From: Acidimicrobiales bacterium
Lineage (GTDB): Bacteria; Actinomycetota; Acidimicrobiia; Acidimicrobiales; CATQHL01
Length of the DNA: 64,000 nucleotides
Reading direction: 5' to 3'
NCBI GenBank assembly: GCA_963668565.2
Contig: CAXXMX010000003.1
Span: 8,932 to 72,931 of the forward strand
Shown one piece after another: positions 50,187 through 55,471 of this stretch; the stretch's first letter is position 1, and every line of letters starts with the position of its first letter. Below the pieces are notes generated by a model, which had not been told where the DNA came from, searched no databases, and was given only the letters and a program-made list of their open reading frames with translations. The position numbers were made by a program, and so were the translations under genes.

Positions 50187-50675
50187 ATGGCGGATGCGGT
50201 TCTGGACCAACTCGACTCCCTGGGGCTGGCCTACGAGGTGGTGCCCTGCGACCCCGACCTGGCCGACACGGCGGCGTTCTGCGAGGCCTACGGCTATGCC
50301 GCCGATGACTCGGCCAACGCCATCGTGGTGATCGGCAAGGCCGATCCGCCCAGCTACGTCATATGCCTGGTGCTGTCGTCGACCCGCCTGGACGTGAACC
50401 GTGTGGTGCGCAAGCGGCTGGGCGTGCGCCGGGCGTCGTTCGCCTCGGCGGCCCAGACCATGGAGCTGACCGGCATGGAGATCGGCGGCGTCACGCCGTT
50501 CGGGATCTCCGGCGATCTGCCCGTGTGGGTGGATGCCCGGGTGATGGACCGGTCGGCGGTCATCATCGGCGGCGGTGGCCGGGATCGGAAGCTGCTGGTG
50601 CCGCCGGCCACGATCGCCGGCCATCCCGACGTGACCGTCGTGGAGGATCTGGCGATGCCGCTTCCGACCGGCTGA
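50187..50675 (+). CDS. YbaK/prolyl-tRNA editing domain protein
   Basis: LTGMEIGGVTPFG, IIGGGGR. Confidence 0.85.
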   Translation: MADAVLDQLDSLGLAYEVVPCDPDLADTAAFCEAYGYAADDSANAIVVIGKADPPSYVICLVLSSTRLDVNRVVRKRLGVRRASFASAAQTMELTGMEIGGVTPFGISGDLPVWVDARVMDRSAVIIGGGGRDRKLLVPPATIAGHPDVTVVEDLAMPLPTG

Positions 50676-50762
50676 CCACGGAGCCCGACCGCTCGACGCA
50701 ACTCCCCTCACAGGCACCCTCGCCGGCCTCGAGGGCCGCGCCGGAGAGGCCGTCGGCGAAGC

Positions 50763-51260
50763 TCAGTAGTCCGAAGGGAACAGCACCGTGGTCTGTGAGC
50801 GCACGCCACGCCCGTCCTCGGCCTCGGTGATGATCCACAGCCGCTCGTCGACGATTGCTGCGCTCGAGTCGCGCCCGGCACCGTGGGCCTCGGCGCCCGC
50901 GCCGGCACCAGCGGCGGCCTCCGAGCCGGCCCCGCTTCCGGACTGGTCACCGCCTGCGGTGCGTCGGATCTGCCCGGGGATCGGGTAGCTCGACAGAATT
51001 CTGCCGCCGGTTACGAGAGCCAGATCGTTGGCCTCGGCGTCATGGCTGCCCAGGTCGCCCCAGTCGCCCCGCCCGTGGCGGCGCAGGCACGACATCACGA
51101 AGGCCCGGCCGCTCTCGTGACACATCAACAGCTGGTCCACTGCCCGCGTGACGACGACAATCCCCAGCGGCACCCGCACCTGCCGGTCTGTTCGGCTCGC
51201 AGCATCCCTAGCACCAGGGACGGCGGAATTGATCGGAGGCGACGCGTCTTCTCCCCTCAT
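50763..51260 (-). CDS. Conserved plasmid/ICE-associated hypothetical protein
   Basis: LRRHGRGDWG...RILSSY...LWIITE...TTVLFPSDY motif family; Gly/Ala-rich insert. Confidence 0.6.
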   Translation of the reverse strand: MRGEDASPPINSAVPGARDAASRTDRQVRVPLGIVVVTRAVDQLLMCHESGRAFVMSCLRRHGRGDWGDLGSHDAEANDLALVTGGRILSSYPIPGQIRRTAGGDQSGSGAGSEAAAGAGAGAEAHGAGRDSSAAIVDERLWIITEAEDGRGVRSQTTVLFPSDY

Positions 51261-51393
51261 CCAGCCCGGCACTGCTGTAACGACCGGGCACGGCATCGGG
51301 GAAGCCAACGGGCAGCCTATATGGATATCACTCGACAGTAGCTAACAAGCAACAACGACATCCAATCCAACCCCCGATGCAACGCGCCAATAC

Positions 51394-51458
51394 CCCCACC
51401 GGCAGCCCAGCGCCCCAACGGCAGCCCAGCCCCCCACCGTCAGCCAAGCCCCCCACCG
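51394..51458. repeat. About 19-bp tandem repeat next to the IS110 end
   Basis: About 3.5 copies of cccccaccggcagcccagc. Confidence 0.6.
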
Positions 51459-51473
51459 ATGCTCCTATGTTTG

Positions 51474-52700
51474 TCAAGCGGCTTGTTGGGTGAGCCAGGT
51501 GTGGTAGTGGGTGGCGAGGGTGTGGTTGTGGTGGGTGCCTCGTTCGAGGGCGCTGAGGCGGCTGGTGGGCGTGTTGAGGGTTGCGGCGGCTGCGGTGAGG
51601 GCGATGTTGGCGTTGAGGCGCCGGTGGCGGAGGTCGGCTCCGTGGGGGACCGGTGGCGGGTTGGTGAGGAGCCGGTGGATCTCGCGGGCGATGTGGCGTT
51701 TGAGGCAGCGGATGGTGTCGCGGGTGGTTTTGCCTTCGCTGCGGCGTCGGGCGGCGTAGGCCTGGGTGCGTTCGTCGCAGCGCAAGCGGACCATGGCGAT
51801 GCGCCAGAGGGCTTGGTTGGCGTGGCGGTTTCCGCCGCGGTTGAGTCGGTGGCGGGTGGTTTGGCCGCTGGAGGCGGGGAGGGGGCTGGCGCCGCAGAGG
51901 GCGGCGAAGGATGCGTCGCTGTGGAGGCGGTGGGGGTTGTCGCCGGCGGCGATGAGCAGTGCGGCGGCGGTGTCGGGTCCGACGCCGTGGGCGGCGAGCA
52001 GGGCGGGGTTAGCCGCGGCGCACAGGGCGCGGAGTTCGCCGTCGAGGGCGGCGATCTCGGCGCTGAGCGCCTGGTGGCGCCTGGCGAGGCTGCGCAGCGC
52101 CCGTTTGGCGGCGCCGATGAGCGCGTCGGTGGTGGAGTTGGGGCGCAGGCGGGCGCAGGAGTCGATGAGGGCGCCGCCGCGCAGACCTCCGAGCTGGTCT
52201 TTGAGCGTCTCGGGGGCGGTGACGAGCAGGCCGTGGATCTGGTTGTGCGCCTGAGTGCGGGCCTTGAGCGCCGAGCGCCGCGCGACGGTGAGCATGCGGA
52301 TCGCCTCGACGGGGCCGTTGTGGGCTTTGGGGACGGCGGTGGCGTGCCCGGCGAGGGCGCCGCGCGCCGCGGCTTCGGCGTCGACGGTGTCGGACTTGCC
52401 GGCGCGGCGGCGCATTTGGCGGTTGGGACGATTCACCTCCACCACCTCGACGCTCGCCGCGGCGAGGTGGCGCGCCAAGCCGGCGCCGTAGCTGCCGGTG
52501 CCTTCGACGCCGACACGGCGCACGGGACCCCACGTGGCCAACCAGGCGGCCAGCTCGCCGTAACCGGCGGCGTTCGCCGCGAACGACGCCGTCGCCAACA
52601 GCGCCCCGGTGGCATCAACAGCGGCGGCGACATGGACATCACGATGGGTGTCGACCCCGCCGACGATCTCAGAACCACTACAGGTGTGCTTCTCGGACAT
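51474..52700 (-). CDS. IS110 recombinase A with C-terminal HTH-like extension
   Basis: GVDTH, VEGTGSYG, KSDTVDA (DEDD); ASSG..RHRLNRGGNR; AGGAGG RBS. Confidence 0.95.
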   Translation of the reverse strand: MSEKHTCSGSEIVGGVDTHRDVHVAAAVDATGALLATASFAANAAGYGELAAWLATWGPVRRVGVEGTGSYGAGLARHLAAASVEVVEVNRPNRQMRRRAGKSDTVDAEAAARGALAGHATAVPKAHNGPVEAIRMLTVARRSALKARTQAHNQIHGLLVTAPETLKDQLGGLRGGALIDSCARLRPNSTTDALIGAAKRALRSLARRHQALSAEIAALDGELRALCAAANPALLAAHGVGPDTAAALLIAAGDNPHRLHSDASFAALCGASPLPASSGQTTRHRLNRGGNRHANQALWRIAMVRLRCDERTQAYAARRRSEGKTTRDTIRCLKRHIAREIHRLLTNPPPVPHGADLRHRRLNANIALTAAAATLNTPTSRLSALERGTHHNHTLATHYHTWLTQQAA

Positions 52701-52809
52701 AATGGTGCGGCCCTCCTTGGACAACCAACCGATACAGGGCACCACCGGCCGCGACGGCGGACAGGACACTCACGGTGCTGGACTCAAGGCTCCTGACTTG
52801 TTGGAATGG

Positions 52810-53000
52810 GGCCAGCACCCCGGTCCCGACGGGGACGTAGGGTGCGAGGTCGGTGACCGGTTGGGCTCTCACGCTCCTTGCCCACTTCGGTGTGGCTCTC
52901 TCATAGCGTGTCCGGCCGGTCGCCGCCCGCTGCGGCGTGGCTCAATAGAGGCGTGATCGTTTCCTGAATTCAGGTTGCCCGCCGTGGAACCCATTGTTCG
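52810..53000 (+). ncRNA. Predicted bridge RNA of IS110-B
   Basis: Stem 52855-52864/52912-52921 encloses GCTCCT and ATAG (target match); stem 52930-52941/52977-52987 encloses ATAGAGGCG and TCAG (donor match); ends approximate. Confidence 0.7.
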
Positions 53001-53020
53001 GCAACCACGAGGAGCGACAA

Positions 53021-54062
53021 ATGACGATCGTTATCGGTATCGACCCGCACAAGGCTTCCCACACGGCGACCGCGATCGGTCCCGGGTCCGTCGAGGCCGC
53101 CACGATCAGGCTGCGAGCGGCCCGCTCGACACCGCAGGAGTTGTTGAGCTGGGCGGCCCGGTGGCCCGAGCGTCGCTGGGCGATTGAAGGCGCCCGCGGC
53201 CTGGGCCAGTTGCTGGCCCAGCAACTCGTCGCCGCCGGCGAGCATGTTGTCGATGTGCCCGCCTCGCTGTCGGCGCGGGTGCGGACCCTCGACACGGGCC
53301 ACGGCCGCAAGACCGACCGCATCGACGCCGCCGCGGTCGCGCTCGTCGCCACACAGCGCCCCGATCTGCCCCGCGTCGCCGCGGACGATCACCACTGCGT
53401 GCTGCGGCTGTTGTCGGATCGGCGCGACGAGCTGACCAGGGAACGGCGCCGCACGATCAACCGGCTGCACCGACACCTGCGCGACCTGATCGCCGGCGGC
53501 GCGCCAACCCAGCTCAGCGCCAAGACCGCCGCAGGACTACTCGCCAAAGTCCGCCCCCGAGACGGCGTCGAAGCCGAACGCAAGCAGATAGCCCGAAACC
53601 TCCTCGCCGACGTGCGGCGCCTCGACGGCGCCCTCGCGGAGAACCGGCGCCGCTGCGTAGCCGCCGTCGCCGCCAGCGGCACCACCCTGACCCACCTCGC
53701 CGGGATCAGCGACGTGCTCGCCGCCAAAAATCTCCGGCCACATCGGCGACATCGGCCGGTTCCCCAGCGCCGACCACCTCGCCAGCTACGCGGGCACCGC
53801 GCCCATCGAAGCCAGCAGCGGCGACGTCATCCGTCACCGACTGTCCCGACGCGGCAACCGCCAACTCAACAACGCCATCTACCTCGCCGCCCACACCCAG
53901 ACCATCCGCCCCGGCCCCGGCCGCGACTACTACCAACGCCGACGCGACGCCGGCAACAGCCGCAACGAAGCCCTCCGAGCGCTCAAACGACAACTCACCA
54001 AAACCATCTACCGCACCCTCACCGCCGACGCCGCCCGCGCCCACCACAACGCCGCGACTTGA
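53021..54062 (+). pseudogene. IS110 recombinase B with a +1 frameshift
   Basis: GIDPHK, IEG, KTDRIDA; shift at A5 run 53726-53730; other frame continues GTAPIEASSG...RGNRQLN to TGA 54062. Confidence 0.88.
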
Positions 54063-54074
54063 CATAGAGGCGCT

Positions 54075-54207
54075 ATCAGGTCACGTCCGTCCGACCGGTC
54101 GGTGCGCGTCCCCGACCAGCAACGGGCCGACAGATCGGACGAGAGGCACCACGGCCAGCATTCCAGCGAGTCAGACCCACCACCAACCGGGGACCCACAC
54201 AGTATGA
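54075..54207 (-). ncRNA. Displaced 5' half of the IS110-A non-coding end (putative bridge RNA)
   Basis: Joins 52701-52794 across the CT core to give gtgacctgATAGGAGCcttgag; ATAGGAGC equals the IS110-A right-end sequence. Confidence 0.6.
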
Positions 54208-54209
54208 AT

Positions 54210-54236
54210 GTCATTCCGGCGAAGGCCGGAATCCAG
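54210..54236. repeat. REP-like palindrome abutting IS110-A
   Basis: gtcattccggcgaaggccggaatccag. Confidence 0.8.
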
Positions 54237-54292
54237 AATCAAGCGCTCCCACCGGCGCCTGCCATCGGCTGCTCAGCACACTCCCAGGCCCG

Positions 54293-55471
54293 CTAGACCC
54301 AGATGTGCATGGGGTAGCCGGTTTCGTCGTGCTCGCCGGCGCCCAGGCAGTCGGCCTCGCCGGCGACGATGCGCCGGGCGGTCCAGGCGGCGGCCGCCGC
54401 ATCCAGAAGGTCGTCGAGACCCGGTCTCGGCGGCCCTGGCGGAGGCGCAGAGACGGCCACCTCCGCGATGTTCGGGAACGCCTCGCCGAGTACGTCCAGC
54501 CGCTCCTGCTCGCCTGCCGGTTTGCGCTTGGAGACCGACATTGGCTCGCCGGCCAGGCGCACGAAGCTGCTCTCCGGATGCACCTCGACTGCTCGGGGCC
54601 GGGCGTCCGGAGCGAAGTCGTCGGGCTCCAGCGCTTCCCGCAGTTCGCGGATCTTGGGCACCAGGTTGAAGGCCTGCGCCGAGATGCCCCGGCCTGTCTC
54701 GTCCCACGACCGCCGGTTGGCTTCGGCATGTCCAGCGGCATCCACGACGCACAGCGGTGGTGTCCAGAACAGCGACGACCGCCGCGCCCCGAGCAGCCGG
54801 TGTGCCTCGAGGTCCGCCTCACGCCTCTCCGCTCCCGGCAATCCGGCGGGCATGTCGACCGCCACCACGAGCAACCGCCGCGCCCGTGCCACCGACCACA
54901 GGTCTCCGAGCGTGGGCCGCACCAGGAACTCCACCGGCGACCCGCCGGCAACACCGGTGACGGCCATGACCCAGCCACCTGACACGCCGTCCACGCCGCC
55001 CACGAGCGCCGGACCGGCAGTGGGCCGGGCGGGCGCTCTCCCCGACGGCGTCGGGGCTTGTCCCCAGGGGCTTGTCACGGCGACGTCAAGCCCGTCGAAG
55101 TCACGCACGTTGCGCGTTGCGACCGTCAGGTCGTGCGCCTTGGCGGTTCCGGCAATGAATGCATCACCGGCGTGGGGCACGTGGCCAGCCAGCCGCGCCT
55201 GAGCCCTCAGTCGCGCCGCCCACTCGGCCTCTCGACGCCCCAGCGGCAGGATGCGGTCGCCGAATTCCGACGTGAACTCCTCAAGTGTGCGTCGCAGGCC
55301 GTCACGACGGTGACCGTGCGGCAGGAGTTCCAGACCGAACTCCAACTCGTGCAGGACCACCGACGACAGCCACAAGTCATCGTGTTCGGAGAGGAAGTTC
55401 AGCACCCCCACCGCCGGTGAAGCTTTCGTCAGTTCCGAGATCACGTTGGTGTCGAGGAGGTAACCGCTCAT
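54293..55471 (-). CDS. PIN/VapC domain fused to a DUF429 RNase H-like domain
   Basis: YLLDTNVISE...DAFIAGTA...TRNVRDF, then GVDGVSGGW, VDMPAGL, EVHPE, DDLLDA with no stop. Confidence 0.8.
   Translation of the reverse strand: MSGYLLDTNVISELTKASPAVGVLNFLSEHDDLWLSSVVLHELEFGLELLPHGHRRDGLRRTLEEFTSEFGDRILPLGRREAEWAARLRAQARLAGHVPHAGDAFIAGTAKAHDLTVATRNVRDFDGLDVAVTSPWGQAPTPSGRAPARPTAGPALVGGVDGVSGGWVMAVTGVAGGSPVEFLVRPTLGDLWSVARARRLLVVAVDMPAGLPGAERREADLEAHRLLGARRSSLFWTPPLCVVDAAGHAEANRRSWDETGRGISAQAFNLVPKIRELREALEPDDFAPDARPRAVEVHPESSFVRLAGEPMSVSKRKPAGEQERLDVLGEAFPNIAEVAVSAPPPGPPRPGLDDLLDAAAAAWTARRIVAGEADCLGAGEHDETGYPMHIWV

Follow-up and report, generated by a model that had tools for sequence, protein, structure and literature searches.

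Bridge RNAs of IS110-family elements were described in 2024 together with the analysis of thousands of orthologues (Durrant et al. 2024, PMC11208160), and the described system closest to the one reported here is IS621. According to the two IS621 papers, pairing of the loop's 3′ side with the top strand extends over 4-7 nt, and the right donor guide (RDG) is split around the non-canonical position 12. Each 3′ guide is followed by one or two handshake bases, and once the strands have been exchanged these pair with position 6-7 of the other DNA (PMC11208160, PMC11208158). The guides take in the core, except that pairing of the left donor guide (LDG) extends no further than the first core base (PMC11208158).

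We analysed a stretch of 64,000 nucleotides from an Acidimicrobiales bacterium (the window, always meant at its full length) that contains an IS110-family element, element B, inserted in a second one, element A. Element B resembles IS621 in having a recombinase with DEDD and Tnp domains, a guide RNA that is encoded upstream of the gene, in the left end, and has a 5′ stem-loop together with two internal loops, the core CT at both junctions, an RDG that is split or mismatched at donor position 12, handshake bases, and a -35 box in the right end. The two elements differ in the length of left donor that is matched ahead of the core (about 9 nt in B, 7 in IS621) and in the bases that follow the LDG, which are U and then G in B, whereas the IS621 LDG pairs with the first core base. 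B also has a high G+C content, and no distal stem was established in its donor loop. Its natural target is the guide region of another IS110 element, a trait described here for B alone.

B is also similar to the IS1111-group seekRNA elements (Siddiquee et al. 2024, PMC11187229), as both choose their targets by RNA and have recombinases of one superfamily. It departs from that group in having the guide region upstream of the gene. IS1111-group elements carry subterminal inverted repeats and have their non-coding guide region downstream of the gene. IS4321 and IS5075 are other relatives with a known target preference and insert in Tn21-type terminal repeats. ISPpu9 and ISPpu10 target REP sequences (PMC12288879, bioRxiv 10.64898/2026.03.19.712850). 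Like these four, B uses a target that is conserved, multi-copy, and non-essential. Unlike them, it targets the donor-guide module of a related element, or the identical terminus of its right end, and the guides of the parasite track the guide variants of the host within the B lineage.

The limits of B can be read from its junctions, ...GGCTC-CT/GACTTG... on the left and ...ATAGAGGCG/CT-ATCAGG... on the right (a slash marks the element boundary). Two sites without B in the same genome, on contig C10 near 1427725 and on contig C9 near 60625, read ...GCTC-CT-AT(G/C)... with a single CT. One CT in these sites and a CT at both junctions in the window define the element given in Table 1, with a core CT on either side as reported for IS621 (PMC11208158, PMC11208160). 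Contigs from two DNA sequencing runs also bridge B, joining 52777 to 54073, and the ends that the first-pass annotation had assumed are thus correct. A BLAST search with 52700-54300 as the query in the genome of the window (10 contigs, 3.77 Mb) found four full-length copies, including the one in the window, and one partial copy. The region 50500-55000 is shared, B aside, by the contig of the window (C3) and the 3.29-Mb contig C10 (locus L002, G000:C10:1426800-1430050) with 97.7% identity; this is either a segmental duplication or the result of two co-assembled strains.

Table 1. Features of elements A and B and copies of B in the genome. Positions are those of the window unless contig C10 is named.
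Feature	Position	Strand	Remarks
Element A, second IS110-family element	51457-54207	-	interrupted by B; ends approximate
Element A, parts	recombinase 51474-52700; right end ~51457-51473; left end 52701-52794 and 54075-54207	-	
Element B, IS110 family, 1278 bp	52795-54072	+	core CT on either side, 52793-52794 and 54073-54074
Left target AAGGCTC and core CT	52786-52794	+	minus strand is 3′ part of the left donor guide of A
Right donor GACTTGT	52795-52801	+	first bases of B left end; recognised with core by RDG
Possible -10 hexamer TGGAAT	52802-52807	+	preceded by TGT; by eye, weak
5′ stem-loop	52810-52851	+	precedes both guide loops; MFE fold; outside covariance model
Target-binding loop module	52848-52928	+	outer stem 52848-52866/52910-52928; inner hairpin 52880-52896
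LTG CACGCUCCU	52870-52878	+	GCUCCU 52873-52878 identical to left target and core
RTG UCAUAG, 6-7 nt	52901-52906	+	complementary to core and right target
Donor-binding loop module	52930-52987	+	stem 52930-52941/52977-52987; U 52938 bulged
LDG AUAGAGGCG	52945-52953	+	9/9 identical to last 9 nt of right end
RDG AAUUCAG, 7 nt	52967-52973	+	complementary to CT and GACTT, one internal mismatch
Handshake bases	52907 (C); 52974 (G)	+	C after RTG; G after RDG
Recombinase gene B, DEDD_Tnp_IS110 and Transposase_20	53021-54062	+	ATG 53021, TGA 54060-54062; frameshifted
TTGACA, perfect -35 hexamer	54059-54064	+	overlaps stop TGA 54060-54062; kept in right ends of homologues
Left donor ATAGAGGCG	54064-54072	+	final 9 nt of B right end
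Core CT and right target ATCAGG	54073-54080	+	minus strand is AUAG 5′ part of the LDG of A and preceding loop bases
Copy B2	C10:851099-852570		96.4% identity to window copy
Copy B3	C10:1677815-1676401		88.6% identity to window copy
Copy B4	C10:2140663-2139241		87.6% identity to window copy
Partial B copy	C10:2137353-2138077		

Two divergently oriented IS110-family genes are present in the window, gene A on the minus strand and gene B on the plus strand. The frame of gene B is broken in the window copy by one extra base within 53726-53734. The N-terminal 238 codons include PF01548 and the remainder, to the TGA at 54060, is in the +1 frame; due to this frameshift, only PF01548 is in frame. The description of B as a candidate reprogrammable recombinase, made in the first-pass annotation, therefore fails for the window copy as assembled. 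An intact version is encoded by copy B2, where a frame of 346 codons is open (L001:2384-3424) and the protein of 346 amino acids matches PF01548 with 68.3 bits and PF02371 with 73.2 bits. The recombinase frame of B4 is open as well. Residues D8, E56, D99, D102, and S265/S266 are invariant in seven aligned relatives, whose identity to the first sequence is 39-77%. In IS621, S241 is the catalytic serine (PMC11208158). From this protein alignment (A2), L017 and L021 were removed for stop codons in their matched stretches, and L020 was omitted alongside. Frame breaks or stops occur in the recombinase genes of several relatives (L017:1201-2212, L021:938-1943, and L003, which is copy B3), so decayed copies whose guide regions are intact are common.

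The site of the extra base has five A at 53726-53730 in the window and four in B2. All contigs of DNA run X3 at the frameshift site (depth 666/666) are one letter short at 53734, and several contigs of run X1 are one letter short between 53726 and 53734. An assembly error is possible given that the extra base is in or next to the run of five A, and the window copy is either a real pseudogene or misassembled. As assembled, element B is non-autonomous and would need intact copies at other places in the genome. It is possible, if somewhat doubtful, that the window copy is a decayed relic, with RNA features that are real and no remaining activity as a source of recombinase or as a mobile unit. Such decay would agree with the frameshift and with the divergence of the copy (96.4% identity to B2, 88% to B3 and B4), whereas neither the four guides nor the two stems and termini show damage, all being identical or nearly so to their counterparts in B2 and L006, and the contigs of X3 and X1 would fit an assembly error at the run of A. 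With guides, stems, and termini intact, the window copy could still be moved in trans by B2 or B4, whose frames are open.

The gene of B is preceded by a non-coding left end of 226 nt. We conclude that, very probably, 52795-53020 forms the left end of an insertion sequence of the IS110 group and encodes a bridge RNA of IS621-like layout and predicted IS621-like mechanism, aimed at the LDG segment of A. The z-score of the minimum free energy (MFE) fold is -3.04 for 52800-53025, with none of 200 shuffled sequences folding as well. In this single-sequence fold the first stem is formed within a 15-bp helix. The donor-loop stem is absent from it, and for this reason was accepted only after comparative folding. 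Relatives were gathered by means of the intact protein, which gave 30 loci from species genomes and, with alignment A2 as the query, 80 from metagenomes. RNAalifold, run on 17 left ends (A1), gives a consensus of three helices, namely the outer stem, the inner hairpin, and the second stem. In the target loop, the first-pass annotation had paired GACCGGTTGG (52855-52864) with CCGGCCGGTC (52912-52921); this stem is present, with two G.U pairs, as a portion of the longer outer stem. The cUUCGg hairpin loop that it had noted is found at 52885-52890, within the inner hairpin, and its donor-loop stem recurs in the consensus of the 17 homologues at exactly the same coordinates.

A covariance model (R1) was built on 52846-52989 and 16 homologues (alignment A3) and has 106 matches in 100 sources. 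Standard pairs fill 95.6% of the cells in the 101 distinct rows of the resulting alignment (A4), and compensatory changes are seen at 29 of the 33 pairs. None of 500 shuffles gave values as high as those observed, and pairing fell to 32-44% when the partners were slid by 1-3 columns. The two helices of the donor stem (7 and 8) are paired in 93-97% of cells, with a compensatory change in 10 of 11 pairs. Because A4 was fitted to the structure of the model, these counts are biased in its favour; the MAFFT/RNAalifold fold, which is independent of the model, agrees with it. A search of 50500-55000 gave no Rfam match at E <= 1, and Rfam 15 may itself hold no bridge RNA model. Within the donor loop, RNAalifold predicts only a contact of three pairs. 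A CCUG/CAGG hairpin and a GGCG/CGUU mini-hairpin were considered as distal donor-loop stems and not adopted, as neither was consistent across homologues by eye.

The first-pass annotation had placed two guides in each loop. Their positions stand, and their lengths do not, as some guides are longer. Its short motifs are all there: GCTCCT at 52873-52878, ATAG at 52903-52906, TCAG at 52970-52973, and ATAGAGGCG at 52945-52953, where it is identical to the right end at 54064-54072. This last sequence has exactly two copies in the 64-kb window (0.18 expected), and at least two copies were seen in 1 of 100 shuffles. The left target guide (LTG) has six contiguous matches and one more with the left target AAGGCTC-CT in the window, and its length is estimated at about 9-11 nt from matches of 9-11 nt in relatives and in copy B4. 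The right target guide (RTG), UCAUAG, matches 5/6 positions at CTATCA in the window and 6/6 at the uninterrupted C10 site, CTATGA; the match to the target is thus a short one in the window. The RDG matches CT-GACTT at 6/7 positions, with the mismatch at donor position 12, and at 7/7 in relatives of the L016 type.

The LDG had been read as stopping before the core, and it does: it is followed by UG in nearly all homologues, while the core is CT. It thus has no Watson-Crick pairing with the core, and the U at most wobbles with the G that faces the core C. This feature had been taken to suggest a variant register. The LDG of IS621 also leaves the second core base unpaired (PMC11208158), so we regard the difference as modest, specific to the lineage and present throughout the family, and not as a new register.

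Gene A carries PF01548 and PF02371. By comparison of A-type copies, the ends of element A were placed near 54207 (left) and near 51457 (right, ...TTGACAAACATAGGAGCA), and B is therefore within the 229-nt left end of A, 94 nt before the ATG of gene A. The covariance model of the B RNA also matches uninterrupted A-type left ends, with 22.5 bits (E 0.0011) for L005 and 9.4 bits (E 0.29) for L002. The two-loop layout recurs in this alignment, and the donor guide there reads AUAGGAGC(C/U). The right end of A, ...ATAGGAGCA, and the LDG of A, AUAGGAGCC, are equal at 8/9 positions. The A-type copies and the R1 alignment did not fix the core of A (TC?) or its target guides. A 27-nt hairpin-forming repeat, gtcattccggcgaaggccggaatccag, is found at 54210-54236 and has dozens of near-identical copies in the genome. 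It is directly outside the left end of A, so A may be a REP-type targeter. The motif GGAAUG in the loop of A also occurs in this repeat.

B is inserted in A at AUAG^GAGCC, such that the CT core of B is the AG of the donor guide of A on the opposite strand. The LTG and RTG of B pair with the two halves of the LDG of A. Since the target of B is this LDG segment, B sits inside the donor-binding loop of A and splits it, and the bridge RNA of A should be disabled in the window copy. Three of the four full-length B copies (window, B2, and B3) are equally far upstream of an A-type gene. The fourth, B4 (L004, G000:C10:2136000-2142000), has an A-type left end on its right side only. The possibility that its left flank is what remains of a further B left end was rejected, as the flank is unique by BLAST; it is therefore read as a real left half-site. 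B4 looks like the product of a half-site event or a rearrangement in which the LTG alone acted as guide. The partial copy is about 1.2 kb from B4 in the opposite orientation.

The LDG of B, AUAGAGGCG, differs from the targeted host guide, AUAGGAGCC, mainly at two bases beside the would-be core. These two bases may keep B out of its own donor loop. Some relatives, such as L088, target guides of the ACAGAGGCA type, which resemble those of B's own family.

Target sites of relatives were surveyed at 68 loci with both junctions, which gave 65 unique sites. A donor-loop signature is present in 42 of the 65 reconstructed empty sites, at the same offset in 41 of these 42; in controls it occurred in 26 of 19,500 shuffles and in none of 3,932 other flank windows. 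R1 also matches the minus strand directly after the B-like right end in 11 metagenome loci, and the junctions there (for example ...GATAG/, ...CAACAG/, and ...CAAGAG/) match the RTG of each respective element. The target guides of relatives change with the class of the host guide, as in AUAG^GAGC, ACAG^AGGC, and AGAG^GGGA. The signature is missing from the other 23 unique sites, so this habit is common in the lineage and not universal. Sites L044, L069, and L077 resemble host right ends (TTGACA...ATAG^...), and targets of this kind are expected because the guide and the right end of a host share one sequence.

An alternative is that the place of B inside the left end of A is a matter of chance or a secondary event, such as a shared hotspot or a rearrangement, instead of RNA-programmed targeting. 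The left flank of B4 is unrelated to A and indicates that rearrangements or half-site events occur, the sites without the signature would be in line with this, and the start of an A-like recombinase is found to the left, on the minus strand, at just 12 of the 68 loci, although few of the flanks exceed about 370 nt. We nevertheless consider this explanation unlikely, given the frequency and constant offset of the signature relative to its controls, the change of target guides in step with host guide class, and the matches of R1 both on the minus strand after right ends and to uninterrupted A-type left ends.

On balance, we favour programmed targeting, in which the B lineage would be widespread hyperparasites of IS110 elements, with target loops aimed at the LDG or right end of the host on the opposite strand, a CT core that falls on the conserved AG of the host guide, and guides that diversified along with host classes. 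If so, insertion of B splits the donor-binding loop of the host and should disable its bridge RNA, a form of RNA-guided competition between mobile elements. A non-exhaustive literature search found no description of IS110 guides directed at the guide of another IS110 element, and the supplementary target tables of Durrant et al. (2024) may already contain targets of this kind. The available excerpts of one preprint describe repeated insertion into occupied IS110 loci, with no guide-directed targeting of the host guide (bioRxiv 10.64898/2026.08.14.744561).

The check that the first-pass annotation had named for its four-guide, IS621-like layout is whether the loop positions covary with the target and donor sites, and the layout is upheld for all four guides. 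The per-locus guide table retains 95 of the 106 R1 matches, and the 11 minus-strand matches after right ends were handled separately. For permutation, loci needed complete flanks and a junction placement with <= 1 mismatch, which left 79 of the 95 on each side; for the target guides these were de-duplicated to 63 (left) and 56 (right) unique pairs and permuted 1000 times. The mean longest common substring of the LTG and left target is 6.29, compared with 4.73 ± 0.15 after permutation (63 pairs), and that of the RTG and right target is 5.62, compared with 4.39 ± 0.16 (56 pairs). For the LDG segment the values are 8.38 and 7.33 (65 pairs), and for the RDG segment 6.19 and 5.78 (79 pairs). In each of the four cases, 0 of 1000 permutations reached the observed mean; the homologues are related, so these counts are not probabilities. 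The left-end and right-end junctions were placed via the donor guides, which makes the donor-guide matches in the per-locus table partly circular. The target-guide tests are free of this circularity, and the donor permutation tests used fixed search windows.

Individual loci illustrate the correspondence. The guide CAGCCUUCU of L039 accompanies the flank ...CCAGCCTTCT, and the guide GACGCUUCU of L069 and L076 accompanies ...GACGCTTCT. The RTG is UCAACAG in L088 and L115, alongside CTGTTGAG, and UCAAGAG in L094, L081, L073, and L097, alongside CTCTTGAG. In L021, CUAACGG occurs with CCGTTAG, the RDG AAGUUGG with CC-AACTT, and the LDG AGAGAGGUC with AGAGAGGTG. L110 has the guide AGACUUGCCU alongside AGACTTGCC(T), and L107 and L106 are also among the covarying cases. 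Changes in the LDG of L016 and L022 are mirrored in their own right ends. Copy B4 has GCUUCU in place of GCUCCU in its LTG, and its left flank, CTCACGCTTCT, matches its own guide region at 11/11 positions.

The handshake positions covary in the same manner. The base after the RTG (52907) and the last right-end base before the core form a Watson-Crick pair in 35 of 37 unique pairs (C:G 28, A:T 4, U:A 2, and G:C 1). The base after the RDG (52974) and the last base of the left target are Watson-Crick pairs in 55 of 74 unique pairs, with a further 10 wobble pairs. By covariation, the handshake guides are thus complementary to position 7 of the non-cognate DNA.

It is highly improbable that B is a classical transposon whose ATAGAGGCG repeat and other matches are subterminal repeats bound by a protein and whose stems form an mRNA leader or attenuator: two copies of a protein-binding site would also produce the covariation of LDG and right end, and the region is directly upstream of the start codon and ribosome-binding site as a leader would be, but an internal protein site does not explain the covariation of target-loop segments with flanks outside the element, the strand pattern is that of IS621 (5′ side the top strand, 3′ side its reverse complement), the handshake positions covary with the opposite partner, and bridge RNAs have been shown experimentally for this protein family (PMC11208160, PMC11208158).

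For a guide RNA in the left end, a promoter would be provided by excision. By analogy with IS621, we predict that B excises as a circle in which the right end is joined to the left end, and that this join would form a probable promoter from TTGACA and an extended -10 element, with 17 nt between TTGACA and TGGAAT. A junction promoter with its -35 box in the right end has been described for IS621 (PMC11208158), and the circle junction would probably be the promoter of the B bridge RNA. RNA made from it would fold into the 5′ stem-loop as well as both internal loops. C 52907 and G 52974, which are complementary to the last pre-core base of the other partner, may then aid strand exchange as handshakes, and the DEDD/Tnp recombinase is predicted to exchange strands at the CT core.

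Contigs from two RNA runs cover parts of this region. Those of metatranscriptome run X17 (0-1 differences) cover 52828-53060 and 54094-54200, with nothing within 53108-54076. Those of X19 cover 53845-54030, which is coding, and 54126-54200, leaving the bridge RNA uncovered. These RNA contigs are of low depth (2-13) and the libraries may contain DNA; uncovered regions in X17 and X19 are not evidence of absence. The runs were used as Logan contigs, which therefore give no starts, ends, or strand. Run X17 offers a weak hint that the bridge RNA region is more abundant than the mRNA.

B has the tested defining features of IS110-group elements with bridge RNAs and is in this respect ordinary for a known family. 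It provides a well-resolved bridge RNA of high G+C content in a family that is of interest for programmable DNA insertion, and about 95 natural guide variants aligned to its RNA define the guide, handshake, and structural positions in this lineage. The targeting of one insertion sequence by another is possibly undescribed so far and is the part worth following, more than the bridge RNA itself. If it is general, donor guides, which are bound to equal the end of their own element, would be a stable landing pad for a second element, and IS110 elements would compete by cutting into each other's guide RNAs.
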